64,000 bases of DNA from an uncultured Planctomycetia bacterium (GTDB lineage Bacteria; Omnitrophota; Gorgyraeia; Duberdicusellales; 4484-171). The first letter of the stretch is position 1. Every line of letters starts with the position of its first letter. The stretch is taken from NCBI GenBank assembly GCA_964489445.1, contig CAZAYU010000001.1, positions 74,717-138,716 on the forward strand. Direction: 5' to 3'. A program made the position numbers and the translations under genes. A model generated the notes under the pieces. That model was not told the DNA's origin and searched no databases. It saw only the letters and a program-made list of their open reading frames with translations. This document shows positions 6,627 through 54,934 of this stretch, piece after piece.

Positions 6627-6986
6627 GGGGGTGAACCGGATTCGACTCGAGGAGGATGTTTAAGGTCGCGTGCCGCGAGGGTAAGCCTTCCGCGTTAACG
6701 GGGCTTTCAAACAATAAACGCAACACCTTACGTTGCAGCACCTGCTTACGCACTTAGCTAAGTAGGCCCTTCATATTTTTTTCTCAGAGAATTTGAAGGT
6801 TCGGCTATGAGGATAGAGACAAATTCTTTTGCTTTAGGGAATTTGTCTTGAAATTACTTAAAGCTGCTTTCGGAAAAATCCGGCCTTACTGAGTTTTCCG
6901 AAAAAAGAATAAACTTAAGGATACGCATGTAGAAGCCTTAAGTTGAGACCTTGAGGACGCGGGTTCGATTCCCGCCACCTCCACCA
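6627..6986 (+). ncRNA. ssrA: tmRNA (SsrA), transfer-messenger RNA
   Basis: The 5' end 'GGGGTGAACCGGATTCGACTCGAGG' matches the conserved tmRNA 5' acceptor/D region (…GGATTCGAC…). The 3' end 'GGACGCGGGTTCGATTCCCGCCACCTCCACCA' is a T-arm plus acceptor with encoded CCA. An internal tag reading frame ends '…GCTTACGCACTTAGCTAA' (…AYALS*). Length is ~360 nt. Confidence 0.85.
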
Positions 6987-8197: not shown

Positions 8198-8271
8198 GGG
8201 CCCGTAGCTCAGTTGGTTAGAGCAGTTGACTCATAATCAATTGGTCCGGGGTTCGAATCCCTGCGGGCCCA
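8198..8271 (+). tRNA. tRNA-Met (anticodon CAU). It could instead be the lysidine-modified tRNA-Ile2.
   Basis: Cloverleaf: acceptor GGGCCCG/CGGGCCC, D-arm GCTC…GAGC, anticodon loop CTCATAA, T-loop GGTTCGAATCC. The anticodon stem is not GGG-rich, so it is unlikely to be the initiator. Confidence 0.9.
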
Positions 8272-8342
8272 TGCTGTAAACGTAGAAACAAAGAAGCATT
8301 GTCTGGCAACATAAAACAGATTCTGGCGTGCAAAATTTTAAC

Positions 8343-8416
8343 GGGCACATAGCTCAGCTGGTTAGAGCGCTACGTTCACATCGTAGAGGTCGCCCGTTCG
8401 ACCCGGGCTGTGCCCA
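8343..8416 (+). tRNA. tRNA-Val (anticodon CAC)
   Basis: Acceptor GGGCACA/TGTGCCC, anticodon arm CTACG-TTCACAT-CGTAG, T-loop GTTCGACCC. Confidence 0.9.
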
Positions 8417-24052: not shown

Positions 24053-24412
24053 TTATCGTACTAAAAGACGTGTCTTTATGTGCTTTGCTTTAAAAAAATG
24101 GCGAGTAAATTTTTTAGCCAGTAAATGATCGTATTTTTGACAAGAAAAAATATTTATGTACGCAGTTTCCCAAAATTCAGAAAAATGACCGGTTATTGAG
24201 CTTGTTTCTATCAACTGCACTAAGGAGTACCCTTTGGTATGAGCTTCCTTCTCACCAAAATAGGGAAGAAGCGTTTTTCCGTATTTTTTCATTTTGATTA
24301 ACCGACATAGCTCATCAACATATTCCTGCAATTTATCTTTAGATGATATTACTTTAGAATCACATCCAATAAGATTAATTATTAATTCGTAACCGTAAAT
24401 CTTTTGGGTCAT
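24053..24412 (-). CDS. SpeH-like pyruvoyl-dependent decarboxylase proenzyme paralogue. It could be an arginine decarboxylase or a non-processing regulatory subunit.
   Basis: 119 aa. 'GYSLVQLIETSSITGHFSE' aligns to the SpeH processing region 'ISESHLSVHTWPE', but Glu-Ser is replaced by Thr-Ser. Overlaps speE by 4 nt. Confidence 0.55.
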   Translation of the reverse strand: MTQKIYGYELIINLIGCDSKVISSKDKLQEYVDELCRLIKMKKYGKTLLPYFGEKEAHTKGYSLVQLIETSSITGHFSEFWETAYINIFSCQKYDHLLAKKFTRHFFKAKHIKTRLLVR

Positions 24413-25245
24413 TTTATCACCTCCTTTAGATGATTAGGGAGTTTTAAACTAGAAAAATGTATGTCTGGATTGTAGTACTTTGTTTTTAGGTTTAATTTTC
24501 TGTATCGATTGGCAATCACACGGTAAGATATTTTTTCAAAATTCCTACCTTTTGCTCCAATTAAAAAACTAAAAAATCCGCCAATATATGTAGGTATCGC
24601 CGCTAGCTGAACTATTGAGTAAGGAAAAATATTCTTAATTAATTTATGACTATCTCTTAACACTTTCTCTTGAAGCATTACCGACCCGGTTTGACGAACC
24701 ATCATTCCTTTTTCTTTTAATAACGCATATACATTACGATAAAATGACCCAGAGAATAGAATCTTTGAAGGACCCACAGGATCAGAAGAATCAACAATAA
24801 CAATGTCAAATTTTTCTTTTGTCTGTCTAACAAATTTTGCTCCATCTTCGATAATCACTTTTACGCGACTATCGTTAAATGAACCCTTATTCAGAAAAGT
24901 TAGATGTTTCTTAGAGAATTTTATCACATCTTCATCGATCTCAACAAGAACCACTCTTTTGACCTTATGTTTTAGGACCTCTCTTAAAACACCGCCATCA
25001 CCAGCTCCAATAATTAGCACATTCCTTGGATTACCACACGCAACAAGCAGGGGATGAACAAGCATCTCGTGATAAATGAACTCGTCAACTTCAGTAGTTT
25101 GAATAATTCCGTCTAGATATAATACTTTTCCAAAAGCAGGAGTTTTGTAAATGCAGCAGTTTTGATATTTAGTCTGTTTTTCGCAAACGCGTTTTCCTTG
25201 CAAACCTAATTTAATACCTGGATGTAAATTCTCATAAAACCACAT
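24409..25245 (-). CDS. speE: Spermidine synthase (aminopropyltransferase)
   Basis: 'VLIIGAGDGGVLREVLKH', 'VDSSDPVGPS'. 278 aa. Confidence 0.9.
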   Translation of the reverse strand: MWFYENLHPGIKLGLQGKRVCEKQTKYQNCCIYKTPAFGKVLYLDGIIQTTEVDEFIYHEMLVHPLLVACGNPRNVLIIGAGDGGVLREVLKHKVKRVVLVEIDEDVIKFSKKHLTFLNKGSFNDSRVKVIIEDGAKFVRQTKEKFDIVIVDSSDPVGPSKILFSGSFYRNVYALLKEKGMMVRQTGSVMLQEKVLRDSHKLIKNIFPYSIVQLAAIPTYIGGFFSFLIGAKGRNFEKISYRVIANRYRKLNLKTKYYNPDIHFSSLKLPNHLKEVIK

Positions 25246-25263
25246 AATATTACAAAAAAATAA

Positions 25264-25638
25264 TTAAAATAGGCCGCGTTTTAACTCAGCAATTTGAACA
25301 TTATTTGTTTCAAATCCCTTTTTCAATACTGCTATAGATTTATAGGGGTTAACATCTCCGCAAACAAAAACATCTAAAGCTGCATATTTGTATTCCGGCC
25401 AAGTATGCACACTTAAATGCGACTCCATGATTATCGCTACCCCAGATATACCTCCGGACGGAGAAAACTTATGTAGCTCAATTTTAAGCAATGTTGCTTC
25501 ACAAGCCTTTATAGCATCTTTTAAGATTTTTTTTATTTTAGAGAGAGAGGAGAGATTTTTAGCATCCCACAGCTCAATAATTAATTGAACTCCAGCATAA
25601 CGTATATCTCCATTTGTGCAGCAAAATTCTTTGGCCAT
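25264..25638 (-). CDS. speH: S-adenosylmethionine decarboxylase proenzyme (small SpeH type)
   Basis: 'GVAIIMESHLSVHTWPEYKYAALDVFVCGD', which is the canonical ES↓S autoprocessing site. 124 aa. Confidence 0.85.
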   Translation of the reverse strand: MAKEFCCTNGDIRYAGVQLIIELWDAKNLSSLSKIKKILKDAIKACEATLLKIELHKFSPSGGISGVAIIMESHLSVHTWPEYKYAALDVFVCGDVNPYKSIAVLKKGFETNNVQIAELKRGLF

Positions 25639-31949: not shown

Positions 31950-32200
31950 AGCACAGAGGGATAAATAAGGTTTAGGCTGAGGATAAGGCTACTATAGGGT
32001 TAAGGGGTAAGGATTAAGAGATAAGTGGGGGAAAGTGACGGACGATAGATGATGGAAGAGGGACGATGAATAAAAAACAAGGTTCAAGAATAAAGGTTAA
32101 AGGAAAAAGGACCGAAGAAGGACAAAACCGAATTGCCACCTTCAAGGTGGAAGATGGATAGCATAAAAAAATGTGTAAAAGAATCAAAGCGTAGATGCGT
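31950..32200 (+). repeat. Polypurine (GA-rich) tract of ~250 nt with degenerate GG(A/T)TAAG-type short repeats
   Basis: The + strand is almost entirely purine, e.g. 'GGGATAAATAAGG…GAGGATAAGG…GGTTAAGGGGTAAGGATTAAGAGATAAGTGGGGGAAAG…GGAAGAGGGACGATGAATAAAAAACAAGG…AAAGGAAAAAGGACCGAAGAAGGACAAAACCGAA'. The minus strand is correspondingly a CT-tract. It lies between rnfB and the fibre-protein gene. Confidence 0.6.
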
Positions 32201-32333
32201 AAAAGTGCGAATGTGAGCAAAAAATAAATATCATTCAGATAAAAAAGCATCTCCTATATGCGCATATGATTAACTCATTTAATTTGTTCGACTTATTTAA
32301 CATATTCACACATTTACGCATTAACTACTTAAC

Positions 32334-32342
32334 GGGGGGGGG
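32334..32342 (+). promoter_or_regulatory. Homopolymeric G9 tract overlapping the ribosome-binding region of the fibre-protein gene. Candidate slipped-strand phase-variation switch.
   Basis: 'AACGGGGGGGGGAAAAATG'. The nine Gs end 5 nt before the ATG at 32347. A G9 run is compositionally exceptional in this AT-rich window. Confidence 0.5.
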
Positions 32343-32346
32343 AAAA

Positions 32347-33903
32347 ATGAAAAAAAGTGCTTTAAAGTCCGTTTGCTTAAGCGTATTTCTTTTATTGTGT
32401 TTGATATACATTCCGTTGTTTGCTCAAGAAATAGATGATAGCGCTGAAACAATAACCCTAGTTACTTATTATCCAGCACCGATTGGTGTATATAGTGATC
32501 TGAGAGCTAAAAAAATGGCTATTGGTGAAGAGTATTACAATCCAGAAACTCATTGTTTTGATGACGGAACAGGAAATTGTGATCCTACGGAACAAGCAGT
32601 GATACCATCAGAAGCAGATTTAGTAGTGCAAGGTAATGTGGGTATTGGGACGACGAGTCCAGTTGAGATGTTGCATATAGAGAACAACCATGACGATAAT
32701 ACCGAAATAGTAATTGGAAATAATTCTAATACTGCCCATGCATCTGTCGGCATCCGAGCAAGATCTGCGGATTCTGAGATTTCTATAGGAGCCCTGCCAA
32801 GTAATAATACCAACTACCCTTTTTGTGCTGATCGTGCTTTTATAATGAGCGGCGTAGCTTCGCTTGGATTGCTTGATACGGCTGGTCTTAGTCTTGGCGC
32901 CACAAAAAGCGATGCTGATATGCGTTTTTATACCGGAGGTTATGCAGTGGCCAATGAACGCATAAGAATTGATTCAAGCGGCAATGTAGGAATTGGGACT
33001 ACAGATCCCAAAGCGCAGCTCCATGTTAATAGCGATACAACTCAAGGAATGGTTAGTATTTCCGGGGTTTCAGATAGTAGCTCTACTTATTCTGCACTTT
33101 ATTTACATGATGATAGCGCAGATAATGATAGCAATTGGGTCTTAGCTCACAAAAACATGCAAGGCGCTGCTGGCGAAAATGATTTTTGGATTGGCTACTG
33201 GGAAAATTCAAGCAGTATGCATACCAATTTTGTAATTGATAGTGAAACTGGAAATGTAGGGATTGGCACCACAAATCCAGAAGCAACATTAGATGTTTAC
33301 ACAGGTCCAGTATATATTGGAAGAGATAGCGGTGGAAAGCCCGGCATGACCTTAGGAGAATCTTCTGCTGTTGGTACTAAACCGGACATTAGATTTGACG
33401 CACAAGGGCTAATCGCCGCTTACAGCAACATTTTTATTAACATCGATTCCGACAATAACAAAGCTAACAACGGAATATATTTTATGCATGATGCTGATAC
33501 AATAGCTGGAGAAACTATTGCTTACATAGTAGAAAACGGTAACATGTGGCTAAAAGGTACCTTAGAAGAAAATTCAGATATTCGCCTTAAAAAAAATATC
33601 CACAGTGTAGACTCTTCCTTAACACAAATTGCAAAAATGAACCCGGTAACTTTTGAATGGAAAAATCCAGGATATCCTTCCGGCAGGCAAATCGGTTTAA
33701 TAGCCCAAGAAATAGAGACTATCTATCCGGAAGTAGTATCTACAAATCAGGAAACAGGATATAAATCTATCGCGTATACAAAGTTAATCCCGATTCTAAT
33801 ACAAGCAGTAAAAGAACTTTCAACAGAAAATGATTTTTTTAAAAAAGAACTAGAAAAACAAAATGAAAACATAAAAAATATTGAACAAAAAATGAATAAA
33901 TAA
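32347..33903 (+). CDS. Secreted fibre / tail-fibre-like protein with a C-terminal intramolecular-chaperone autoprocessing domain (peptidase S74 / endosialidase-chaperone type)
   Basis: Signal peptide 'MKKSALKSVCLSVFLLLCLIYIPLFAQE'. Three spaced repeats: 'GNVGIGTTSP', 'GNVGIGTTDP', 'GNVGIGTTNP'. The C-terminus 'NSDIRLKKNIHSVDSSLTQIAKMNPVTFEWKNPGYPSGRQIGLIAQEIETIYPEVVS…GYKSIAYTKLIPILIQAVKEL' matches the S↓D-x-RLK…GLIAQEV…PE(A/V)V chaperone domain that self-cleaves in phage tail spikes. The start follows the ORF-track internal Met, not the upstream Met at 32266. Confidence 0.7.
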   Translation: MKKSALKSVCLSVFLLLCLIYIPLFAQEIDDSAETITLVTYYPAPIGVYSDLRAKKMAIGEEYYNPETHCFDDGTGNCDPTEQAVIPSEADLVVQGNVGIGTTSPVEMLHIENNHDDNTEIVIGNNSNTAHASVGIRARSADSEISIGALPSNNTNYPFCADRAFIMSGVASLGLLDTAGLSLGATKSDADMRFYTGGYAVANERIRIDSSGNVGIGTTDPKAQLHVNSDTTQGMVSISGVSDSSSTYSALYLHDDSADNDSNWVLAHKNMQGAAGENDFWIGYWENSSSMHTNFVIDSETGNVGIGTTNPEATLDVYTGPVYIGRDSGGKPGMTLGESSAVGTKPDIRFDAQGLIAAYSNIFINIDSDNNKANNGIYFMHDADTIAGETIAYIVENGNMWLKGTLEENSDIRLKKNIHSVDSSLTQIAKMNPVTFEWKNPGYPSGRQIGLIAQEIETIYPEVVSTNQETGYKSIAYTKLIPILIQAVKELSTENDFFKKELEKQNENIKNIEQKMNK

Positions 33904-33905
33904 AA

Positions 33906-34298
33906 ATGTTTACCAAGGCTGTTACAGTAGAGGAAGTAATCGGTGATAAAGTAAGAATTCGGTTTACAAAGCAAAAAACCTGCGGATGCTGCCGAATGTT
34001 TTCACTTTGTGGAGGAAATAACGAAACAATGACTATTGACAATCCTGGCTTAGACATTCAAAAAGAAAACTTATTGGAAATTAATATTGATGAACAAAAA
34101 AGTTATCTAGCTGGAATAATTACATTTCTCTTGCCTAGTTCTATTTTTATAGCCGGCTTAATAGCATTTAAAGACAGGGGAGAGATGAATAGCTTCTTGT
34201 TATCATCATTAATAGTTTTTGCTTACTTTATTATTGTAAAGATTGGCTTAAGAAAATACGGAAAACACTTCACCATAAAAATAAACAGAAAATTATGA
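33906..34298 (+). CDS. RseC/MucC-family small membrane protein (SoxR-reducing-system / Fe-S associated), putative
   Basis: 130 aa. The architecture matches RseC: an N-terminal β-strand 'AVTVEEVIGDKVRIRF', a cysteine cluster 'CGCCRMFSLCGG', then two TM helices. Its stop overlaps the purN start (ATGA). Confidence 0.5.
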   Translation: MFTKAVTVEEVIGDKVRIRFTKQKTCGCCRMFSLCGGNNETMTIDNPGLDIQKENLLEINIDEQKSYLAGIITFLLPSSIFIAGLIAFKDRGEMNSFLLSSLIVFAYFIIVKIGLRKYGKHFTIKINRKL

Positions 34299-34894
34299 AT
34301 ATTGCTGTTCTAGCCTCTGGTAACGGAAGTAACTTCGAAGCATTGGTTAAATATTTAAAATCAGCCAAAATAGACGCTAAGATAAACTTATTAGTTGTTG
34401 ATAAAAAAAATGCATTTGTCCGCACCCGGGCAAAAAAACTAAAAATTAAGGAATTACTTATCGACCAGAGAAAATTTCCTACTCGTATTGCCTTTGAGAA
34501 AGAAATTGCCGGACATCTTCAAAAAGAACAAATTGATTTGGTAGTCCTAGCCGGATATATGCGGATAATTTCTTCGTACTTCATTAAACAATTTAAAAAC
34601 AAAATCATCAATATTCATCCAGCACTCTTGCCAGCATTCAGAGGAAGAGATGCAATCAAAAGAGCATTTAATCACGGATCTAAGGTAAGCGGGGTAACTA
34701 TTCATTTTGTTGATGAACAAATTGATCACGGACCAATCATCCTCCAGGAAAGCATAGAGATTCCAAAAAACATAACCCTAAAAAAATTTGAAGCAAAAAT
34801 TCACGCCTTAGAGCATAAACTATTACCTCAAGCAATAAAACTATTCAGTGAAAAAAAAGTACGATTATTCGAAAAGAAAGTTAAGATTACCTAG
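34295..34894 (+). CDS. purN: Phosphoribosylglycinamide formyltransferase
   Basis: 'IAVLASGNGSNFEAL', 'NIHPALLPAFRG', 'SGVTIHFVDEQIDHGPII'. Confidence 0.9.
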   Translation: MNIAVLASGNGSNFEALVKYLKSAKIDAKINLLVVDKKNAFVRTRAKKLKIKELLIDQRKFPTRIAFEKEIAGHLQKEQIDLVVLAGYMRIISSYFIKQFKNKIINIHPALLPAFRGRDAIKRAFNHGSKVSGVTIHFVDEQIDHGPIILQESIEIPKNITLKKFEAKIHALEHKLLPQAIKLFSEKKVRLFEKKVKIT

Positions 34895-35723
34895 CCTCAA
34901 TGTCCAACACTTTTTCTAAAAGAGCTTTCTTGGTGTAGCGACGGCTCTTCTGGTTAAGAGTATCAGTAATTTCAATTTCAACAATACTTGCAGGAGAATC
35001 ATATGTTTCCAAAAGACGTTTTATAGTTTTTTCTGCCTCAAGAAACGGAGACAAGGAATCATCATTATTAGAAACTATTTCAATATTAAATAAAACCTGT
35101 AATGTTTTATTGCTGAATGCCGTCCGTAAATCATTTATCTTATATTCATCCTTTACATCCGGATCAATAAATTTACGGCGTAAGTTTTGTTTTGTAAGGT
35201 AAGAGATATGCTTTTCTAAAGTTATTTCTTCAGTAAACGGAATATGCTTTCCTTCCGTATCTCCTAGCGCTTTGGGGTTACGAAAGGAATCAAACACAAC
35301 TCTATGGTGGCGATCATCTAAAGAAATTTGTTTCATTTGAAATTTAATTCTATCCGGAATAAATTCAATTGTATAAACATCCGCTCCAATATCTTTGATA
35401 TCTGAAGCAACAAGACAATAAAATTCAGGCGGTTTGTCCATATTTAAAAACACTCTAATCAGAGAAAGAGAGATCCTGCGAATATCCTCTGCGGCCTTCT
35501 CATCCCATTTTCCTTCATCATCAACTATTTTATCAAAAGGTGCATAAATCCAAACAGTATTCCCGGCTGTCCATGTTTTTACGTCCAAACTAAACTCTTT
35601 CTTACATATATTTTGAATAACCTTAGCGATATCTTCGCGAGAGTAAGTGGTGGGGATAGAGCAAGAAACAAGAAAAAAGATTCCTAAGCTAATCAGTAGA
35701 TTCTTGAAAACGTCTCTTACCAT
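34887..35723 (-). CDS. Hypothetical lipoprotein
   Basis: Lipobox 'FFLVSC↓SIP' after an N-terminal signal sequence. No catalytic motif recognised. It lies downstream of, and is probably co-transcribed with, ftsH. Confidence 0.5.
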   Translation of the reverse strand: MVRDVFKNLLISLGIFFLVSCSIPTTYSREDIAKVIQNICKKEFSLDVKTWTAGNTVWIYAPFDKIVDDEGKWDEKAAEDIRRISLSLIRVFLNMDKPPEFYCLVASDIKDIGADVYTIEFIPDRIKFQMKQISLDDRHHRVVFDSFRNPKALGDTEGKHIPFTEEITLEKHISYLTKQNLRRKFIDPDVKDEYKINDLRTAFSNKTLQVLFNIEIVSNNDDSLSPFLEAEKTIKRLLETYDSPASIVEIEITDTLNQKSRRYTKKALLEKVLDIEAR

Positions 35724-40478: not shown

Positions 40479-41771
40479 ATGAAAAAATGTACAAGTTTTC
40501 TCTTGAGTGTTGTGGGGCTGGTCGGTATTCTAACCGGTTGCACACCAAGCAACAAAACAAATGAGGACATTGTTGTTTGGCATTGGATGAACGACCGTCA
40601 AACCGCTTTTCTAAAACTTGCCGAACAATACAAAGAGGAAAACGGAATTAATGTAACTTTTAAGTTATTTTCCCCTCCCGATATCTATTCGCAGAAAGTA
40701 ATCGCGGCAGCCAGAGCTGGAAATTTACCAGATATTTTTGGTATCCTGGGAGAGAAAAAAACTATTTCTTCCTTTGTTAAAGCTGGACACATTTTAAACC
40801 TGACTCCTTATATACAAGAAAATAATCGCAAATGGCAAAATAGCTTTTACCCTCAGGCACTAAATGTAACTGAGTTTAAAAACAAAAATTCATACGAAGC
40901 ACCTGAAGGATTTTACGGAATCCCCATTGACATGACTGTGGTAGAGTTTTTATATAACAAAGAACTATTTAAAAAAGCCGGATTAGACCCTAATAAACCA
41001 CCAAGTAGTTTTGAACAATTTATTGACTATGCAAAAATAATAAAAGACAAGCTATCTGTTGACGGATTTACCTGCGGATGGGGCGAAGGGTGGTTAATCA
41101 ACGCCATTGCAATAGAATGGGCTATAAATTTAATGGGAGAAGAAAAGTTCTTGCAGACAATTAAAGGCGAAGTGCCCTACACTGACGCGCAATGGATAGA
41201 AGTATTCTCGTTATTTGAAAAAATAAAAAATGCAAACATTCTCTCTTCAAATATTACCACAATGATCAATAAAGAAGCAGAAGATTCTTTTTCTAAGAAC
41301 CAAGCTGTCTTTTCCTTCAATGGAAGCTGGTCAATCAACGTTTATAAGCAATTAGCACCTGATTTACAATACGCTTTCTTCCCATTACCAGAAATATCAA
41401 AAAAATTTCCGGTTAAAATATGGGGAGGAGCAGGATCATCGTTTATGGTTAACGCTCATTCAAAAAAGACAGAAAAAGTAGTTTCTTTCTTAAAATGGTT
41501 GACATCACCCAAACAACAAAAATTTCTTGTCAAAGAAACTAACAATCTCCCAGCAATTAAAGGCTGCACAAAAGAATTGTCTCCCGTCATGCTTTCGTTG
41601 GTGGATGATTTTGGAATACTTACCCACAGGAATATTTGGCCATACAATGAAAGCTCTCCAGTAATCGAAGTTACGATCAAAAGCTTACAGCAAATTATTA
41701 TGGGGTTAAAGACACCACAAGAGGCAGCTCTAGACATACAGTCCGTAAAGGAAAGGGAAATGCGTAAATGA
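40479..41771 (+). CDS. ABC transporter substrate-binding lipoprotein (family 1, carbohydrate type)
   Basis: Lipobox 'ILTGC↓TPS'. About 400 aa of periplasmic SBP with a 'W…GG…' sugar-SBP pattern. Followed by two MalFG-type permeases. Confidence 0.8.
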   Translation: MKKCTSFLLSVVGLVGILTGCTPSNKTNEDIVVWHWMNDRQTAFLKLAEQYKEENGINVTFKLFSPPDIYSQKVIAAARAGNLPDIFGILGEKKTISSFVKAGHILNLTPYIQENNRKWQNSFYPQALNVTEFKNKNSYEAPEGFYGIPIDMTVVEFLYNKELFKKAGLDPNKPPSSFEQFIDYAKIIKDKLSVDGFTCGWGEGWLINAIAIEWAINLMGEEKFLQTIKGEVPYTDAQWIEVFSLFEKIKNANILSSNITTMINKEAEDSFSKNQAVFSFNGSWSINVYKQLAPDLQYAFFPLPEISKKFPVKIWGGAGSSFMVNAHSKKTEKVVSFLKWLTSPKQQKFLVKETNNLPAIKGCTKELSPVMLSLVDDFGILTHRNIWPYNESSPVIEVTIKSLQQIIMGLKTPQEAALDIQSVKEREMRK

Positions 41772-42661
41772 ACGAATATACACTAAAAGACAAAAGTGTA
41801 AATTTTGCATTTATTTTACCAGCCTTCTTAATATTTGCCATATTCTATCTTTACCCTTTTTTCTACTCATTTATACTAAGCTTTCAACGCGGAGACGGAA
41901 TTTATTTATCTAAATTCATCGGGTTAGCTAATTTCAAGGAAGTTATTCTATATGATAAAGCCTGGTGGAAATCAATGTACAACGCAGGATTTATTACTTT
42001 CTGGGCGTTAACTTTTCAAAACATACTCGCATTTACATTAGCATTGGGAGTGGATAAAGCAATTAAAACCGGTAAAATTTATCGGGTAGTTTTTTTTATC
42101 CTTCCTGTGCTTTCCGAGATAATTATCGGTTTATTAATGAGAGAGCTACTTATCTCTAACCCGGGTATTCTTAACCAATGGTTGGAAAAGATAAATTTAG
42201 GCTTTATCGCCCAAGACTGGCTGGGGAAAAATAGCGTTTTGTTAACAACTGCTTTGGTCCATTGTTGGAAAGGATTTGGGTGGGCATTCATTATTTTTCT
42301 AGCTGGATTACAAACTGTCCCGGAACAATTATATGAAGCTTCAAAAATAGACGGAGCCAACCCTTGGCAAACTTTCTGCAATATTACTTTACCTCTTTTA
42401 ATGCCAGTTGTGTCTCTAGTTATAGTGCTTACACTTCTGGGAACAATGCAAGCTTTTGCCATGATTCTAGCTTTAACCAGAGGTGCAGGAGGCTTAACCG
42501 AGGTTCCGGTGATGAGAATATACAACCATCTGCGAGGAAGCCAGGTAGGATTAGCTTGCGCCGAAGGAATAGTTCTTGGAGCTATGCTTGTGGCAGTATC
42601 ATTCGGAATGTTTAATGTCTCTAAATGGATAAGGAGTCGTTGGGGTGTATTACCGCGCTAA
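41768..42661 (+). CDS. Carbohydrate ABC transporter permease (MalF/UgpA-like)
   Basis: 6 TM. EAA-loop region 'EASKIDGANPWQTFCNITLPLL'. Confidence 0.8.
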   Translation: MNEYTLKDKSVNFAFILPAFLIFAIFYLYPFFYSFILSFQRGDGIYLSKFIGLANFKEVILYDKAWWKSMYNAGFITFWALTFQNILAFTLALGVDKAIKTGKIYRVVFFILPVLSEIIIGLLMRELLISNPGILNQWLEKINLGFIAQDWLGKNSVLLTTALVHCWKGFGWAFIIFLAGLQTVPEQLYEASKIDGANPWQTFCNITLPLLMPVVSLVIVLTLLGTMQAFAMILALTRGAGGLTEVPVMRIYNHLRGSQVGLACAEGIVLGAMLVAVSFGMFNVSKWIRSRWGVLPR

Positions 42662-43481
42662 AAAAATTATATTTCTGGTTATTCTGCATACTTTGTTATT
42701 AAGCGTAGCGTTAAGCTGCGTCGGTCCGTTATTTTGGATGATTAACGCTTCATTTAAGACCGAAGGAGAGTTTCGCCAAGACCATGGATTAAAGGTTGCT
42801 TCTTCTCTTAATTGGAAAAATTATAAAAAAGCAATTACCGAAGGAAAATTGGGATTTTATTTTTTAAATAGTGTATTTTACACTTTTGTTACAGTATCTT
42901 TGATAGTTATCGTTTCCTCTTTAGCTGCTTTTGCTTTTTCCCGTTTAAATTTTCCCGGAAAAAATATTATATTCTTTATGTTCTTGACGGCGATGATGAT
43001 CCCGCTTCCTGCCGGATTTGTGCCAGTTTACATTCTTCTTAATAAACTTCATCTGGTAAATCGCACTGGGTATATTATGGCAATGTCCAATATGGGGCTT
43101 TCTTTGAGTATTTATCTTTTAAAGACTTTTTTTGACCAACTTCCTCGTGATCTTGAAGACGCGGCTAAAATCGACGGATGCAATAAATTACAAATTTGGT
43201 GGAACGTCGGTCTACCACTAGTTGCCCCAGCTCTTGCTGTTGTAATTATTTTTAACTCTCTTACCGTCTGGAATGAATTTGTTCTTGCTTCCTTGATGTT
43301 TACTGACAACAGCATGATGCCTCTTCAAGTCGGCTTAATGGATTTTTACAACCAAAATATCATCCAACACACTCTATTGATGGCCTCTTTGGCTATTGCC
43401 GCTGTACCGATCATTATGCTTTACTTACGAATGCAAAAACAAATAATTAAAGGCATAACTGCAGGAGCAATGGTCGGATAA
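42645..43481 (+). CDS. Carbohydrate ABC transporter permease (MalG/UgpE-like)
   Basis: 6 TM. EAA loop 'DLEDAAKIDGCNKLQIWWNVGLPL'. Confidence 0.8.
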   Translation: MYYRAKKIIFLVILHTLLLSVALSCVGPLFWMINASFKTEGEFRQDHGLKVASSLNWKNYKKAITEGKLGFYFLNSVFYTFVTVSLIVIVSSLAAFAFSRLNFPGKNIIFFMFLTAMMIPLPAGFVPVYILLNKLHLVNRTGYIMAMSNMGLSLSIYLLKTFFDQLPRDLEDAAKIDGCNKLQIWWNVGLPLVAPALAVVIIFNSLTVWNEFVLASLMFTDNSMMPLQVGLMDFYNQNIIQHTLLMASLAIAAVPIIMLYLRMQKQIIKGITAGAMVG

Positions 43482-43490
43482 ATAAAAAAA

Positions 43491-45821
43491 ATGAAAACAC
43501 AAAAAAATAAAAATAGAAATAGTGTGAGAAAAGCAACGATATTACTTATTTTTTGTTGGCTGACAATTGGAACGGTTTTTTCCGAAGATGCATCAGACTA
43601 TGTAAACAAAGGATGGGCCATCTTAGGAGAACGACAGTTTAGCGATGTTTATAAAATCACAGATTCATGTATTTCTGAATTTTCCGAGATTGCTAATGCA
43701 TCTGCAAAATCATTAAACAACTTCCCCTCAAAGGGAGAAGAAGATAAGTACAGGATAATGAACAATGTAGCAACTTGTTATTTCATCAAAGGAGAAGCGC
43801 TAATGCGCGATGGGAAAATAAACGAAGCCAAAGATGTATTTAAAAAGGTGATAGCTGCGTACCCTTTCGCTCAAAGCTTTGATCCTCGTGGATGGTATTG
43901 GTCGATCAAAGAAAAGTCAGAGATAACTTTAAATAAACTAGAAACCGGAGAAGTAAGGGAAGACAATGACACACTAGACAAAACAACAATCACTAAGGTA
44001 ACTCTTTATGATAAGGGAACAGAATTTCCGGTTAAATACTCTGAATACGGAAAATTTACTAATATAGGAACAGAAAATTATAAATATATAGTAGAGGACC
44101 CAATTAAACTATCTAAAGCTATTGGGGAAGGAATATACCCAAACACTTCTTCCATAAAATTTGATCCGGAATATATCAAATTAAAAAGAAAATTATTTAA
44201 GATTAATCACTGGGAAATACTAAACTCTCGTGACTTAAACACAGCTTTTTACAAATGGAATGTAGCTTCGGAACCTCCAGCCGTAAAACAATTTTATATC
44301 GCCGAGATTCTAGAGAAAAGCGGATTAATAAAACAGGCAATTAAAGCATACTATGCAATATTAGTTCATTTTCCTGATAGCTATAGCTGGACATATTGGC
44401 ATACACCGTGGTACGTCGGTAAGGCTTCCCTGTACCGGATAAAATATTTACTAAAAAAATACCCTAAACTAGGACTTAAATTAGAAAATGCAAAAATAAA
44501 GATTATCAATGGCTACGACAACAATGTCCGGAATGACAAATTTATTGTAAACCCTGGTATCTTAAAAAAAGTTTCTCTTAAAGATAAACTTGCCAGTGCT
44601 TACAATAATTTAACTTGCTCAAAGATGTGCAGTGATAGAAAAAATAAAACAAGGAAAATTAAGGAAACAGAAGGAAAATCTGTGAAGCTCGTCGAATACC
44701 AAAACGGAAACTGGCAGTTACTCGTTAATAATAAGCCTTTCATAATTAAAGGAATTACTTATGGTCCAACTCGTGTTGGAGAATCACCAGATGAAGGAAC
44801 TATGCAAAACTGGTCAACGCAAGATTTAAATAACAATGGCATAATTGACTCTCCATATGAAAGTTGGGTTGATGAAAATAAAAATAACGTAAAGGATGAA
44901 AATGAGAAAATTGTAGGTGATTTTTATCTTCTTAACGACATGGGGGTCAATACCTTACGTCTCTATCACCAACCATTTGAGTTAAATCAAAAAATTATTC
45001 GACAAATGCATGCAAAATATGGTATATATATAATAATAGGCGATTTTTTAGGAAAATACGCTATCGGAAGTAAAGCGGGCTGGGAAAAAGGAACAGATTA
45101 CGATAACCCCGAACATCAAAAAAATATGATAGAAAGCGTAAAAAAAATGGTTGAGGATTTTAAAGACGAACCTTACGTTTTAATGTGGCTTCTGGGAAAT
45201 GAAAATGTTTATGGATTGGGTTGCAACGCTGATAAAAAGCCAGAAAGTTTTTTTAAATTCGCCAACAAAGTTGCTTCCTTAATTAAAACTCTGGATCCAC
45301 AAAAAAGACCAGTTGCTATCTCCTCTGGAGATATTTTATACTTAGATATTTTTGCAAAAAATTGTCCGGACATCGACATATTCGGAACTAATGCATATCG
45401 AGGGCAATACGGCTTTTTAGATATCTGGGATGAAGTAAAAGAGGCTACAGGAAAACCAGCAATGCTTACCGAATACGGAGCCCCTTCTTACGCTAGAGGA
45501 TACACCCTGGAAGAAGCTGAAAAATATCAAGCCAATTATCATGAAGCTTGTTGGCAAGATATTGTCTGTAACTCTTCTGGCTATGGTGCAGGAAATGCTA
45601 TTGGCGGAATTGCATTTGAATGGGTTGATGAATGGTGGAAGGCCTATGAGCCTGCCCACCATGATAAAAAAGGATTATTTACTGGTCCTTTTTTAGATGG
45701 GTATATGCATGAGGAATGGCTAGGAGTGTGCAGTCAAGGGGAGGGAAACGAATCTCCTTACCTGCGCCAGCTTAAAGATTCTTATTTTACTTACAAACGG
45801 CTTTGGAACGAAAATGATTAA
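43491..45821 (+). CDS. Secreted TPR-like N-terminal domain fused to a glycoside-hydrolase family-2-type TIM-barrel domain (putative glycosidase)
   Basis: N-terminal signal/TM. The C-terminal half has 'NTLRLYHQP' (cf. GH2 NxxRxSHYP), 'MWLLGNENVYG' (cf. LacZ WSLGNESG acid/base), 'MLTEYGAPSY' (cf. nucleophile xEYAHAMG) and 'FEWVDEWWK'. Confidence 0.5.
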   Translation: MKTQKNKNRNSVRKATILLIFCWLTIGTVFSEDASDYVNKGWAILGERQFSDVYKITDSCISEFSEIANASAKSLNNFPSKGEEDKYRIMNNVATCYFIKGEALMRDGKINEAKDVFKKVIAAYPFAQSFDPRGWYWSIKEKSEITLNKLETGEVREDNDTLDKTTITKVTLYDKGTEFPVKYSEYGKFTNIGTENYKYIVEDPIKLSKAIGEGIYPNTSSIKFDPEYIKLKRKLFKINHWEILNSRDLNTAFYKWNVASEPPAVKQFYIAEILEKSGLIKQAIKAYYAILVHFPDSYSWTYWHTPWYVGKASLYRIKYLLKKYPKLGLKLENAKIKIINGYDNNVRNDKFIVNPGILKKVSLKDKLASAYNNLTCSKMCSDRKNKTRKIKETEGKSVKLVEYQNGNWQLLVNNKPFIIKGITYGPTRVGESPDEGTMQNWSTQDLNNNGIIDSPYESWVDENKNNVKDENEKIVGDFYLLNDMGVNTLRLYHQPFELNQKIIRQMHAKYGIYIIIGDFLGKYAIGSKAGWEKGTDYDNPEHQKNMIESVKKMVEDFKDEPYVLMWLLGNENVYGLGCNADKKPESFFKFANKVASLIKTLDPQKRPVAISSGDILYLDIFAKNCPDIDIFGTNAYRGQYGFLDIWDEVKEATGKPAMLTEYGAPSYARGYTLEEAEKYQANYHEACWQDIVCNSSGYGAGNAIGGIAFEWVDEWWKAYEPAHHDKKGLFTGPFLDGYMHEEWLGVCSQGEGNESPYLRQLKDSYFTYKRLWNEND

Positions 45822-45844
45822 CAGTATAAATAAAGGAGGTTTAC

Positions 45845-47038
45845 ATGCGTAAGCTAAGCGGCTTAACTATCACTGTGTGTGCATTTGCATTTCTCTTGGT
45901 TAGCGGAATTTCTTTCTCCGCTGTATGCCAGGATGTTGAAGACTTTTATGTCTATTCTGATAAAAATTCTCCTTCGAACCATTTTATTCCTAGTGGATGG
46001 ATGGGTGATAATAATGACCTTCAATTTAACGACCAGGCAACCAACGAAGCATCTTCCGGGGCAACTTCTATAAAGATAGTCTACACTGCTAAAAAATCAC
46101 AAAATAATGGTTGGGCCGGAATTTATTGGCAATCTTCTCAAAATAACTGGGGTGGAAGGGATAGCGGTTTTGACTTGAGCAACTACAATGAGTTAACTTT
46201 TATGGCTAAAGGTGCCGAAGGCGGAGAAGTAATCACTAAAATAAAAGTAGGTGGAATTACCTCCAACGCAGTTACCGGCGAACCAGTAGCATTTCCCGAC
46301 ACTGTCAATGTAGAAATTGACCCTATAAAACTAACTAACGACTGGCAAGAATATTCGATTAATCTAGCCGACAAAGACCTAACCAATGTTAATGGAGGAT
46401 TAGCTATCATTTTTAATGCAGATCAGGCAAACGGAAAGCAAACAGTTTACCTAGATGATATTAAATACACCTACATTGCTGATCTAAAAAAGAAAGAGTC
46501 TGCGGTAAATTTCCCTTTTTACGTATACGCAGACAGCGGATCCCTAGACAATCATTTTACCCCTAGCGGATGGATGCCAACAACTGCGGCTAGAGATTTA
46601 CGAATGGATACTAATTGGAAGAATTACCCATTTAGTGGAGATACCTGCATGAGAGTTGAATACAAGAATGACTCTGGAACACGTTGGGCCGGAATTTATT
46701 GGCAGAATCCAGCAAACAACTGGGGAACTATCCCTGGCGTAGGATTCGATCTTCAAGGAGCAGACAAAATTACCTTTTGGGCGCGTGGCGACAAGGGTGG
46801 AGAAATAATCACTGAATTTAAAATTGGTGGCATTGCTAGCGGTGAACATATTGATTCTGACTCTGCGAGCATCGGCCCTGTTCAATTAACAAAAGAATGG
46901 ACAAAATACGAAATTGATTTACGTGGACGCGATCTTTCCTATATTATTGGAGGATTTTGTTGGGCTACTAACATTGATGTAAACGACCCTGAGGGAATAG
47001 TATTCTACTTAGACGAGCTTAAATACGTAAAAGAATAG
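45845..47038 (+). CDS. Secreted protein made of two tandem ~170-aa β-sandwich carbohydrate-binding-like repeats
   Basis: Signal peptide. Repeat 1 'NHFIPSGWMGD…WAGIYWQSSQNNWGG…GFDLSNYNELTFMAKGAEGGEVITKIKVGGI'. Repeat 2 'NHFTPSGWMPT…WAGIYWQNPANNWGT…GFDLQGADKITFWARGDKGGEIITEFKIGGI'. Confidence 0.45.
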   Translation: MRKLSGLTITVCAFAFLLVSGISFSAVCQDVEDFYVYSDKNSPSNHFIPSGWMGDNNDLQFNDQATNEASSGATSIKIVYTAKKSQNNGWAGIYWQSSQNNWGGRDSGFDLSNYNELTFMAKGAEGGEVITKIKVGGITSNAVTGEPVAFPDTVNVEIDPIKLTNDWQEYSINLADKDLTNVNGGLAIIFNADQANGKQTVYLDDIKYTYIADLKKKESAVNFPFYVYADSGSLDNHFTPSGWMPTTAARDLRMDTNWKNYPFSGDTCMRVEYKNDSGTRWAGIYWQNPANNWGTIPGVGFDLQGADKITFWARGDKGGEIITEFKIGGIASGEHIDSDSASIGPVQLTKEWTKYEIDLRGRDLSYIIGGFCWATNIDVNDPEGIVFYLDELKYVKE

Positions 47039-47082
47039 TTGTAGAAAAATAATCTTTTACATCACAAAAAGCACATAAATAA

Positions 47083-48414
47083 ATGGGACTATCTAAACAC
47101 AAAAAGAACAAACTGTTAAGCTTTATCTTATTGGTAATTTTCTTAATCATCTTAGGAATAGTGCTGTTCTGGATGGGAAAAACTAGATGTGATGGCAATC
47201 TATTGAAAAACAACAAAAAAATTATAGCAAATAATTTACTTACTGCTCAAAACCAACAAATAACACCTCCTGCTGGGCCAATAGTCATAAAAGCTACCTC
47301 TGAGGGTGGATACACTTTGTATGTAGGGAAAGAACCATTCCTCGCCAAAGGAGTCGGATACAACCCCACCCCAATCGGCAAAGGATACACCTATGATTTT
47401 TTTCAAGATGAAAGTAAACCTTGGTTGGTCGATGGGAAGCTAATGCAAAAAGCAGGAATCAATTGTGTTCGGATTTACACAACGAGTAAAGATCTAGACA
47501 AAGTAAAATTATTTATCCGAGAAATGTACGAAAACTTCGGTATTTACACCATTGTTAGTGATTGGTTAGGATTATGGAATTACCCAAGAGCTAACTACGC
47601 TGACAAAAATTTTCAAGAAAGCGTTAAACAAAAAATGCTCACCATCGTCGAGGCATTAAAAGATGAAAAAGGACTCCTGATGTGGATGTTGGGGAATGAA
47701 AATAACTACACATTTTCCGGGAAAATTGGTTTCTGGACTTCTCCGGAAATTGAAAAGATCGAGCAACCTGCCGAAAAACAAGTTAAAAGAGCAGAAATTT
47801 ACTATTCCTTCGTAAACGAGATTGCTTCTAGTATTAAAGCAATCGACAAATCACATCCAGTCGCCTTAGGAAACGGAGAAGCTAACTTTTTAGGAGTAGC
47901 TGCAAATACCTGCAATGACATTGATATTCTGGCAATAATCATCTACCGTGGAAAAACATTCGGTAATTTGTTTAACACCATCAGGAATACATTCAATAAG
48001 CCAATTATTCTTTCTGAATTCGGGTGTGAATCTTTCGATGCATATAAGAAAGAAGAAAACCAAGATATTCAATCAGATTTTTTGCTTGCTCAATGGAAGG
48101 AACTATATGCGAATACTACTCTCAGCGGAAACAAGGCTGGAAATTGTATTGGGGGATGTTCTTTCGAGTGGACTGATGAATGGTGGAAGCATAATGAAGG
48201 ATATGCTGATGATTGGAAAATTCACAATCAAGAAGCAGGATGGTCACATGGTGCATATTTCTTTGATATTCGCTCAGACAATAACCTAAATATGAATGAA
48301 GAATGGTTTGGCATCATCAGCTTAAGCAAGGAAATGGAAAACGGAATAAACAAGCGCACACCTAAAAAATCATTCTATACCTTAAAAAACTTCTTCTCTA
48401 ATCTTCAATATTAA
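47083..48414 (+). CDS. GH2-type TIM-barrel glycosidase-like protein, a membrane-anchored paralogue of the 43491-45821 C-terminal domain
   Basis: N-terminal TM. 'GINCVRIYTTSKD', 'MWMLGNENNY', 'ILSEFGCESF', 'FEWTDEWWKHNEG'. The same motif order as the upstream paralogue. Confidence 0.5.
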   Translation: MGLSKHKKNKLLSFILLVIFLIILGIVLFWMGKTRCDGNLLKNNKKIIANNLLTAQNQQITPPAGPIVIKATSEGGYTLYVGKEPFLAKGVGYNPTPIGKGYTYDFFQDESKPWLVDGKLMQKAGINCVRIYTTSKDLDKVKLFIREMYENFGIYTIVSDWLGLWNYPRANYADKNFQESVKQKMLTIVEALKDEKGLLMWMLGNENNYTFSGKIGFWTSPEIEKIEQPAEKQVKRAEIYYSFVNEIASSIKAIDKSHPVALGNGEANFLGVAANTCNDIDILAIIIYRGKTFGNLFNTIRNTFNKPIILSEFGCESFDAYKKEENQDIQSDFLLAQWKELYANTTLSGNKAGNCIGGCSFEWTDEWWKHNEGYADDWKIHNQEAGWSHGAYFFDIRSDNNLNMNEEWFGIISLSKEMENGINKRTPKKSFYTLKNFFSNLQY

Positions 48415-48512: not shown

Positions 48513-49145
48513 ATGAAAAATTACTGGTACCTAGCATTAGTACTATCCCTCTCTATCCATAGCCTGTTATTTATTAAGTACGGCATTTCTTTAAATGAGA
48601 TTCTCAAAAAAGAAGAAACAACTAACTCAAGAACAACAAAGATTGAGCTCACACCCGAGACAATGAAAAAAATAACAAAAAACAAACCTTTGAACGTGCA
48701 AGACATAAAACCACTTCCGTATCTGGAAAATTTTGTTGATGATCTAAACAAGAAAAATAAACCATCCTTGCTTAAAAAACTACAGATATCCCAGAAAAAT
48801 ATAAAGGATGTATTCTTTTCAGAAACATCACCGAGCAACCACGAACTGGAAAAGAATGACGCATACATGAATTATTACCGGTTAATAAGAGAAAAAATAA
48901 AAGCTAACGCTTACCATAACTACAATAGCAAAAGAGAAGGAGAGGTCCTCATCAATTTCATGGTCTTAGCCAGCGGATTACTCCAAGATATTGCTTTTGA
49001 CCAGAAATCAGTTGCTAGTGATGTTTTGAAAAAAATCGCCTTAAAAAGCGTTGGGGAATCTTCCCCGTTTCCAGAATTTCCAGAAGAACTAAAACAATAT
49101 TCTTATCTGCGATTTAACATATCAATATACTTTAAAAACGACTAG
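48513..49145 (+). CDS. TonB-family C-terminal-domain protein (putative energy transducer)
   Basis: An N-terminal TM ('YLALVLSLSIHSLLFI'), a linker, then a C-terminal TonB-like β-domain 'GEVLINFMVLASGLLQDIAFDQKSVASDVLKKIALKSV…FPEFP'. Confidence 0.45.
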   Translation: MKNYWYLALVLSLSIHSLLFIKYGISLNEILKKEETTNSRTTKIELTPETMKKITKNKPLNVQDIKPLPYLENFVDDLNKKNKPSLLKKLQISQKNIKDVFFSETSPSNHELEKNDAYMNYYRLIREKIKANAYHNYNSKREGEVLINFMVLASGLLQDIAFDQKSVASDVLKKIALKSVGESSPFPEFPEELKQYSYLRFNISIYFKND

Positions 49146-54352: not shown

Positions 54353-54934
54353 ATGGGGCTCTTAACAACATTACTATACATTATCTTATCAATTGTCTCT
54401 GGCACTTTATTGATCGGTATATCCTTGAATATAGCTGATATTCCGACTCTACTTGGCATGCTCGAATCTAAAATCATTGCAGACCCTTTGCTAAAAACTA
54501 CTTTTTTACTCGTTGGAACCATTATTATCCTTCTTTGTTTGCGCTATATACAAAGAATATTTCTTAAATCCCACAGAAATAAATCAATATCTTTTAAAAC
54601 ACCTCAAGGAAATGTAAGTATTACTATCCTGGCCATTGAAGATATGCTAAAAAAAATGCTTGAAGAAAAACCGGAGGTATCACACATTAAGCCTAGAGTA
54701 TCATTAAAAAAGAAAAAAATAGAAGTATCAACTAAAGGAGTTTTGACCGCAGAAGTAAATCTTGTCGAGTTCACAAAGGAAATACAAGAAAAAATAAAGG
54801 AAAAAATAAACACTCTCCTTGGTGAGGATAAGCAAGTAGAAGTAAATCTAGAAATTAAAAAAGTTTCTTTGGGCAACAAAAACAAAACTCTAGAGAAAGA
54901 AGAGCCAAAAGTACCATTTCGCAATTACTCATAA
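54353..54934 (+). CDS. Hypothetical membrane protein. It might be an Asp23-associated membrane anchor (AmaP-like).
   Basis: Two N-terminal TM helices, then a charged K/E-rich tail. Genes downstream of accBC are often Asp23/AmaP family, so this is a synteny-based guess only. Confidence 0.3.
   Translation: MGLLTTLLYIILSIVSGTLLIGISLNIADIPTLLGMLESKIIADPLLKTTFLLVGTIIILLCLRYIQRIFLKSHRNKSISFKTPQGNVSITILAIEDMLKKMLEEKPEVSHIKPRVSLKKKKIEVSTKGVLTAEVNLVEFTKEIQEKIKEKINTLLGEDKQVEVNLEIKKVSLGNKNKTLEKEEPKVPFRNYS

Follow-up and report, generated by a model that had tools for sequence, protein, structure and literature searches.

We examined a 64,000-nucleotide stretch of DNA (64 kb, hereafter the window) from an uncultured bacterium assigned to the Omnitrophota (GenBank assembly GCA_964489445.1, contig CAZAYU010000001.1), in which the gene at positions 32347-33903 of the plus strand encodes a 518-residue fibre protein. 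With a probability of roughly 70%, this protein is a Sec-exported, homotrimeric surface fibre resembling a phage tail fibre, namely an N-terminally anchored and self-cleaving adhesin built on the plan of the mosaic adhesive trimers (MATs) of Bdellovibrio bacteriovorus. It comprises a signal peptide, a short conserved N-terminal segment termed here the head, a shaft with three GNVGIGTTxP units and a C-terminal Peptidase S74 domain (Table 1). The results established directly concern domain content, motif conservation, homology, chromosomal context, the distribution of the protein family, its mosaicism and the insertion of the gene into the chromosome. Epibiotic predation or parasitism is suspected for the Omnitrophota, a phylum of uncultured and mostly ultra-small bacteria. 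The attachment devices so far proposed for them are pili and giant proteins, with no mention of tail-fibre-like proteins (PMC10066038; bioRxiv 10.1101/2023.11.21.568195).

The C-terminal part of the fibre protein matches the Peptidase_S74 family (PF13884) with an E-value of 7.1e-16 and 58.7 bits (cut-off of 22) over residues 410-464, corresponding to profile positions 1-57 of 58, with position 1 falling on Ser410. This search confirmed the C-terminal S74 chaperone domain proposed in an earlier note that was made from the sequence of the window, but not its length of about 120 residues, as the part predicted to be released comprises 109 residues (computed mass of 12.5 kDa). The catalytic dyad of S74 domains is Ser-Lys, within the motif SDxxxK. 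Of the conserved Ser-Asp dyad that the same note had expected, Ser410 is in place, while the partner residue is Lys415, which is aligned as well. Ser410, Asp411 and Lys415 are each conserved in at least 90% of 120 homologues, and Ser410 and Lys415 align with the Ser and Lys motif positions of the solved domains of MyRF ICA (PDB code 7dc3; ADLRAK), a phage long tail fibre (PDB code 6f45; SDRRIK) and PDB entry 8jov (SDERLK). The 7dc3 structure has Ala at the Ser position; this is presumably a cleavage-dead mutant of MyRF Ser587, the Lys of the motif being Lys592. In the monomer model computed with AlphaFold2 (AF2), residues 410-518 display predicted local distance difference test (pLDDT) values of 90-97 and a helix extends from residue 477 to 517. 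Structural comparison of this domain with MyRF ICA using Foldseek gave a template-modelling (TM) score of 0.69 and a root mean square deviation (rmsd) of 3.0 Å at 25% identity. Judged by these sequence features, the fibre protein would probably trim off its own folding chaperone.

Preceding the S74 domain is a body rich in Gly, Ser, Ala, Asp and Asn, in agreement with the Gly/Ser/Asp-rich composition noted earlier. Its three GNVGIGTT[SDN]P repeats begin at residues 96, 212 and 302 and are also detectable in the DNA, at 66-80% identity; they had been described as evenly spaced, which holds only roughly, since the intervals are of 116 and 90 residues. Among proteins of known structure, the best sequence match to the shaft is B. 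bacteriovorus Bd2133 (PDB code 8ond; phmmer E-value of 2.6e-11 over residues 94-323), to which all three GNVGIGT units align. Further Bdellovibrio fibres, Bd1334, Bd3182 and Bd2439, come next, their structures bearing the PDB title "cell wall surface anchor family protein" (entries 8oml, 8ojn and 8ol4 were matched by phmmer), and Foldseek likewise placed Bd2133 (E-value of 5e-7), Bd1334 and Bd3182 first. In both comparisons the shaft finds its best solved relatives among Bdellovibrio fibres and not among virion proteins. Shaft and S74 domain are also homologous to the fibres of many phages. The protein matched 33 PHROG families, some of them over residues 94-509; where a function is assigned to the family, it is nearly always that of a tail fibre or a baseplate. 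With tblastn, matches were identified in 564 of 50,697 phage records. Among the best phage matches listed, homology covers only the region from about residue 92 onward (coverage of up to 63%), and the longer matches are 25-37% identical. Related Omnitrophica proteins are annotated by NCBI as "tail fiber domain-containing protein", and outside the head the full-length relatives that come closest reach about 30% identity.

Some of the phage matches are annotated as endo-N-acetylneuraminidase or hyaluronidase, which bears on a different reading, in which the protein is an exported and released tailspike-like depolymerase that degrades polysaccharide, with the S74 domain serving as a folding aid only, as in endosialidases. 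Endosialidases and tailspike depolymerases are the proteins on which S74 domains were originally recognised, and the region 6-14 kb downstream of the fibre gene contains a sugar ABC transporter and glycoside-hydrolase-like genes. A MAT, Bd3182, has itself been compared with the P22 tailspike (PMC10769870). However, the NCBIfam scan of the fibre protein gave no match, neither Pfam nor NCBIfam matched a catalytic domain in the fibre body, and most of the 383-residue body is made up of GNVGIGT units with homology to fibre shafts that are not enzymes. In addition, the invariant head is common to hundreds of otherwise unrelated small proteins, which argues for a shared docking or sorting role rather than an enzymatic one. 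We therefore regard a depolymerase as unlikely.

The head opens the mature chain of the predicted surface fibre. Its core, E-x-ITxTTYYPxPxGxYxELR, is nearly invariant and directly follows the signal peptide; the consensus of 224 distinct sequences reads E-[TS]-[IL]-T-[IL]-T-T-Y-Y-P-[SA]-P-[YF]-G-x-Y-x-E-[LM]-R-[AS]-x-[RK]-[MIL]-A-[IV]-G-[DE]-x-Y, with six positions (Y, Y, P, P, G and Y) displaying 100% invariance. The motif starts some 7-8 residues before YYP and thus at the extreme N-terminus of the mature protein, 1-2 residues past the signal-peptidase cut, and the first shaft unit follows this cut at a distance of 70 residues. The module directly after the signal peptide is shared by 25 of the 120 best homologues. 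A scan of 185,579 species-representative genomes revealed at least 329 confirmed head-bearing matches, the best 79 of which are all from Omnitrophota metagenome-assembled genomes (MAGs) or from bins labelled Planctomycetes-Verrucomicrobia-Chlamydiae (PVC), often with several loci per genome. An exhaustive HMMER search with the head only (68 residues, without shaft motif) retrieved 468 representatives of clusters formed at 50% identity, in all of which the match lies at about residues 20-90. When 145 of these representatives were examined, the motif was found in 144 and a signal-peptide-like N-terminus in 141, with the head at a median position of 35. A search of 2.9 million viral contigs yielded 32 confirmed loci; none of them carries the head, and only its shaft-like end (LVVEGNVGIGT) matches there.

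The distribution of the head also bears on whether the protein belongs to a phage-derived particle, that is, whether it is the receptor-binding fibre of a tailocin, an extracellular contractile injection system (eCIS), a gene-transfer-agent-like machine or a prophage encoded elsewhere in the genome. The many phage fibres homologous to both shaft and S74 domain fit such an origin, and the genome is visible only in part. A cleavable Sec signal peptide would, however, be incompatible with cytoplasmic assembly onto a particle, and the head is missing from every confirmed viral match. The N-terminal end of phage fibres is the baseplate-attachment end. Inspection of the 79 genomic loci, a comparison of phage and chromosomal contexts that the earlier note had suggested, revealed head-family genes standing singly among housekeeping genes, with no recurrent structural-gene neighbour and no conserved partner for secretion or anchoring: even the commonest neighbour cluster is present at only 8 of 79 loci, and such neighbours as do recur have housekeeping functions. 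Neither these loci nor the scanned ORFs of the window revealed a phage structural module or a prophage setting. The lone receptor-binding protein that the earlier note offered as its alternative is consequently not supported for a phage or a tailocin, given the signal peptide and the lack of the head in viral matches. Overall, we consider a phage-derived particle very unlikely. The note preferred to see in the protein a tail-fibre module domesticated as a surface fibre or adhesin of the cell, and this interpretation is supported by the significant PF13884 match, the aligned Ser and Lys, the PHROG and MAT homologies, the Sec-type N-terminus and the absence of a phage context.

The proteins that carry the head differ widely in what follows it. 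S74 tails were found in 27 of 90 head proteins from the genome loci and in 15 of 144 representatives, while the non-S74 tails are short (median of 264 residues), often Cys-rich and mostly without a Pfam match; one displays a weak match to Gp10_C. A further family member (L038:5914-7068) has a borderline match to the Peptidase_G2 "IMC autoproteolytic cleavage" domain (24.9 bits, cut-off of 25), which suggests that a second intramolecular chaperone of phage type, unrelated to S74, is also in use within the family. The closest relatives of the fibre change from one segment to the next: P0021 and P0122 for the signal peptide and head, P0121 for the head-shaft region and module 2, P0007 for module 1, P0057 for the tip and P0080 for the S74 domain. 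At least two paralogues are present in this genome, and at least 4-5 in other MAGs. The second paralogue of this genome, P0021 (L005:10001-10951), is a protein of 316 residues without an S74 domain, with a Cys-rich tail ending in CYALCCK, and its gene is wedged in the lipopolysaccharide (LPS) KDO/Lpt cluster between kdsA and kdsD-kdsC-lptC-lptB. P0021 and the fibre gene are 83% identical in DNA over signal peptide and head, with 85% identity between the signal peptides, and carry different tails. P0021 bears a precomputed Pfam label, PF26696 "PTL_trimer", which was not reproduced with the local Pfam copy. P0122 is a minimal version of 217 residues that retains signal peptide, head, one repeat and S74 domain; its 5′ coding region is 86% identical in DNA to that of the fibre gene, while the upstream region differs. 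P0122 (L122:1-424), from the same sequencing project as the assemblies of the window, lies directly downstream of 5S rRNA and tRNA genes, recognised by eye. On these sequence comparisons, the fibre gene is a cassette of a mosaic family with a conserved signal peptide and head and swappable tails.

Such a family invites the more far-reaching and rather doubtful idea that the head, a nearly invariant peptide of about 25 residues, is a new, Omnitrophota-specific N-terminal sorting or anchoring signal that docks swappable tips on the cell surface, encoded by genes that behave as cassettes and move from one intergenic site to another while the rest of the chromosome stays conserved. The tips may then include S74 fibres, Cys-rich knobs and other phage-derived forms. 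If true, this would constitute a host- or prey-recognition repertoire of these nanobacteria, paralleling the MATs with a different anchoring solution.

The surroundings of the fibre gene are those of an ordinary chromosome. Upstream lies rnfCDGEAB and downstream an RseC/MucC-like gene followed by purN; the earlier placement of the gene between the rnf operon and purN was therefore right as to both flanks and missed the intervening RseC-like gene. Pfam scans of predicted open reading frames (ORFs), which covered most of the window, returned only housekeeping families (PFOR, RuvABC, MetK, AhcY, glycolytic enzymes, MreBC, PBP2, RodA, SpeDE, RnfCDGEAB, PurN, PurU, FtsH, a sugar ABC transporter, EF-P, AccBC and ThiCE), and no capsid, terminase, portal, integrase or tail genes were detected in the scanned ORFs, as the earlier note had stated for phage genes in general. 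The GC content of the fibre gene (0.378) matches that of the window. Three syntenic relatives, L016, L053 and L060 (Ca. Susulua stagnicola), share with the window the backbone rnfA-rnfB-rseC-purN-(hypothetical gene, ftsH)-band7-band7-purU-SBP at 40-80% amino-acid identity, depending on the gene. In L016 and L053 only about 18 nt separate the rnfB stop codon from the rseC start, the stretch available from L060 beginning at rseC, so that its rnfB-rseC junction is out of view. Because of this close spacing, the RseC/MucC-like gene is, by synteny, the original neighbour of rnfB and lies outside the fibre unit. In the window, a 1.95-kb unit consisting of a 397-nt leader and the fibre gene stands between the two genes and ends 2 nt before the rseC ATG. 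This comparison indicates that fibre gene and leader were inserted as a unit between rnfB and rseC, and an insert this small, flanked by genes that adjoin each other in relatives, excludes a prophage at this position. An RnfB-based synteny scan of metagenome contigs returned only two irrelevant ferredoxin-domain matches. A search for terminal direct or inverted repeats, as expected of mobility as a transposon or miniature inverted-repeat transposable element (MITE), revealed nothing convincing, only short A-rich matches flanking the insert.

A second site of the same backbone, between ftsH and band7, displays the reverse pattern: it is an empty 140-nt gap in the window and holds one or two head-family genes, with different tails, in all three relatives. 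L016 (5177-6600) carries two head-family genes in tandem, L053 (5917-6618) one with a weak T4 Gp10_C-like tail, and L060 (3869-6711) a 5′-truncated one beside an IS30-like transposase, a nucleotidyltransferase and small toxin-antitoxin (TA)-like ORFs. The ftsH-band7 site looks like a hot spot of cassette turnover.

A lineage-specific insertion that lacks a close orthologue, its nearest full-length relatives sharing about 30% identity outside the head, could also be the decaying and functionless relic of a past phage insertion. Against this stand the intact 518-codon frame, the conservation of all catalytic and structural S74 motifs, the family-typical signal peptide and head, both under strong conservation, and a GC content in line with the surroundings. 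Moreover, 13 contigs, which come from several metagenomes and of which the longest measures 509 kb, encode the identical protein, and the gene sequence is identical in the four assemblies retrieved. The chance that the gene is such a relic is minimal.

In the mechanism we propose for the surface fibre, the 26-residue signal peptide would be removed after Sec export, so that the mature chain opens almost at the head, and the head would hold the fibre on the cell envelope. The S74 domains are expected to trimerise through their terminal helices and to template an intertwined, β-helical shaft containing the three GNVGIGTTxP units. Ser410 and Lys415 would then cut the chain before Ser410, freeing the 12.5-kDa chaperone and leaving 40.8 kDa per chain. 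Cleavage would expose the distal tip (approximately residues 316-409), which might bind a ligand on another cell or surface. We infer trimerisation and self-cleavage from S74 biology and the MAT precedent, and surface anchoring by the head and the adhesin role are likewise drawn by analogy.

Several points weigh against this proposal. A Sec-exported fibre would still have to pass the outer membrane, a difficulty that it shares with the Bdellovibrio MATs, and the 79 loci offer no conserved neighbour gene that could anchor or secrete the fibre. The head is a putative anchor, and trimerisation and self-cleavage of the fibre are predicted from homology. For shaft and head, the AF2 monomer models are of low confidence: the mean pLDDT is 65 over the whole protein and 58 when the head is modelled by itself. 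The Sec signal peptide recorded in the earlier note was seen again as a Sec-type N-terminus (MKK, a hydrophobic core and a predicted cut between LFA and QE), called from the hydropathy profile only. At 383 residues, the mature fibre is short compared with the approximately 1,000 residues of typical MATs. A prey- or host-binding role in this Omnitrophota lineage would be an analogy only.

The features of the gene and its flanks are collected in Table 1. The complete ORF on the plus strand spans 32266-33903. The ATG at 32347, the start given in the earlier note, is the better supported: a Shine-Dalgarno-like G9-AAAA sequence stands just ahead of it, the ATG at 32266 has no purine-rich site, and P0021 and other homologues start at the equivalent MKK, which together make 32347 a credible start. 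Three further readings of the protein were rejected. A trimeric autotransporter (type Vc) is at odds with the lack of a YadA-type β-barrel anchor, Pfam giving only PF13884 at the C-terminus, which is moreover predicted to be cleaved off. No lipobox was found in the sequence that would make the N-terminus that of a lipoprotein, and no class-III signal that would make it that of a pilin.

Table 1. Features of the fibre gene, its leader and the adjoining gene (window coordinates)
Feature	Position	Strand	Basis or remark
Purine/GGA-rich leader, 397 nt, rnfB stop to fibre start	31950..32346	+	Aligns with the upstream region of P0021
Conserved leader block A, ACGGACGATAGATGATGGAAGAGGGACGA	32038..32066	+	2 mismatches to the P0021 leader; not found in other Omnitrophota loci
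Conserved leader block B, with palindrome CCACCTT-C-AAGGTGG	32124..32160	+	37 nt, identical in the P0021 leader
G9 tract and AAAA, likely ribosome-binding region	32334..32346	+	Directly before ATG 32347
Sec-type signal peptide, aa 1-26	32347..32424	+	Hydropathy; predicted cut LFA/QE
Predicted mature fibre chain, aa 27-409, 40.8 kDa, pI 4.2 (computed)	32425..33573	+	
Head peptide, aa 27-56, ETITLVTYYPAPIGVYSDLRAKK	32425..32514	+	Consensus of 224 distinct sequences; best 79 genome loci; viral-contig search
Rest of N-terminal module (MAIGEEYY, Cys61...Cys70 loop, ADLVVQ), into shaft repeat 1	32515..32631	+	Alignments; similar to shaft units of viral fibres also
Shaft repeat 1, GNVGIGTTSP, capping-loop-type motif	32632..32661	+	Aligns to GNLGLGTAAP of Bd2133
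Shaft repeat 2, GNVGIGTTDP	32980..33009	+	Sequence repeat; aligned to Bd2133
Shaft repeat 3, GNVGIGTTNP	33250..33279	+	Sequence repeat; aligned to Bd2133
Putative autocleavage/catalytic motif S410-D-I-R-L-K415	33574..33591	+	Conserved in homologues; aligned to solved S74 domains
S74 intramolecular chaperone/autoprotease domain, aa 410-518, 12.5 kDa, long C-terminal helix at end	33574..33900	+	PF13884, AF2, Foldseek
RseC/MucC-like gene	33906..34298	+	PF04246, E=1e-11; 2 nt after the fibre stop codon

The leader upstream of the fibre gene is shared with P0021, whose counterpart (L005:9809-10000) has about 200 nt of purine-rich leader in common with it, and is not present between rnfB and rseC in the syntenic relatives; hence it belongs to the inserted unit. 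Block B occurs in a single copy in the window, with zero copies expected by chance. A search of Rfam with the leader revealed no family at E-values of up to 1, and signals of sigma-70 promoters or of terminators in the leader were not above chance. A pattern search for the leader DNA in metagenome contigs gave 0 hits, in a collection that lacks the source samples. A family-wide regulatory element was rejected, since the blocks precede the two paralogues of this genome but were seen neither in the 79 other loci nor upstream of P0121 or P0122. The leader common to the two paralogues could be a shared regulatory 5′ untranslated region (UTR) or operator, a CsrA-like GGA leader being one idea. An inverted-repeat pair (32195-32215 and 32301-32321; 21 nt, 86% complementary, 85 nt apart) sits in an additional segment of about 165 nt that the P0021 leader is without and that holds the spurious ATG at 32266; this segment might have arisen as a small MITE-like insertion, or it might form a long hairpin in the 5′ UTR. 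The G9 homopolymer (32334-32342) just upstream of the start of a surface protein has the classic layout of phase variation, which was rejected as its length is identical in all four independent assemblies.

Elsewhere in the window, a sugar ABC transporter (substrate-binding protein, SBP, and two permeases; 40479-43481) stands just ahead of two proteins with weak GH2_C/GH72-like TIM-barrel matches (776 residues with TPR, and 443 residues) and a 397-residue ORF without a Pfam match (43491-48414); transporter and glycoside-hydrolase-like genes may form a polysaccharide-utilisation cluster. Spermidine synthase, on the minus strand, lies between two S-adenosylmethionine decarboxylase (AdoMet_dc) paralogues (24053-25638). 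A tmRNA gene (6627-6986) encodes the tag peptide ATPYVAAPAYALS, and tRNA genes were identified for Met and Val (8198-8416), Thr (25845) and Gly (59524). ORFs without a Pfam family lie at 60416-62002 (528 residues), 54353-54934 (193 residues), 48513-49145 (210 residues) and 34887-35723 (278 residues), the last of which, beside ftsH, is found at the same place in all three syntenic relatives (41-43% identity).

As regards novelty, the S74 domain type, its chromosomal non-phage use and its presence in Omnitrophota (one Table S3 entry) are already published, and the result for the single gene is incremental for this reason. New here is the Omnitrophota-specific head, which defines a large cassette-like family. 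It implies that Omnitrophota, too, hold a large family of small fibres made from phage parts with a common head, analogous to the validated prey-binding MATs. The family provides easily expressed candidates for host or prey recognition, together with a motif by which to find them (TYYPxPxGxY after a signal peptide).

The MAT superfamily of B. bacteriovorus comprises 21 chromosomally encoded proteins with signal peptides, which have a conserved N-terminal domain of about 130 residues and a trimeric β-helical shaft with capping-loop motifs (Caulton et al. 2024, PMC10769870). The tip is an S74 domain with SDxxxK in 13 of the 21 and another tip otherwise; surface display was shown, one tip binds a glycan, and Bd3182 self-cleaves at Ser782, cleavage being abolished in the S782A mutant (PMC10769870). 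The Omnitrophota fibre shares with S74 MATs such as Bd3182 (PDB codes 8ojn, 8onb and 8onc) the chromosomal, non-phage setting, the signal peptide, a conserved N-terminal and a variable distal end, a β-helical shaft with capping-loop units of the type G-N-x-G-x-G-T-x-x-P-x-x-x-L, the C-terminal S74 domain with SDxxxK and membership of a multi-copy mosaic family. In contrast, MATs extend over about 600-1,900 residues against 518, and their N-terminal domain of about 130 residues is β-rich, compared with a conserved N-terminal module of 30-70 residues in the Omnitrophota fibre. Surface display and cleavage are, moreover, experimental facts for MATs, while the Omnitrophota fibre is known from its sequence. 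The fibre thus appears MAT-like by its signal peptide, shaft, S74 domain and mosaicism, the MAT-defining N-terminal domain standing outside this comparison. Bd2133, the best solved match to the shaft, is a non-S74 MAT of 1,031 residues that ends in a β-sandwich tip, unlike the fibre described here.

Closer in phylogeny, Supplementary Table S3 of the same study lists MAT-like proteins of other lineages, including the S74-like Candidatus Omnitrophica protein A0A2H0LB00 (PMC10769870). This protein (COV76_08125; 713 residues) belongs to the same phylum, has an S74-type tip and was flagged as MAT-like from a lineage suspected of predation or symbiosis; the comparison is with a table entry, which has no published family analysis. 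The chaperones of endoNF (PDB code 3gw6) and of the T5 L-shaped tail fibre pb1 (PDB code 4uw8) are of the same PF13884 family, with the Ser-Lys dyad and a C-terminal location on a trimeric fibre. Unlike the Omnitrophota fibre, they are part of virion proteins that are made in the cytoplasm without a signal peptide and encoded in phage structural modules. MyRF, the source of the ICA domain that matches the C-terminal domain best in structure, is a membrane-bound transcription factor of eukaryotes and has an unrelated role.

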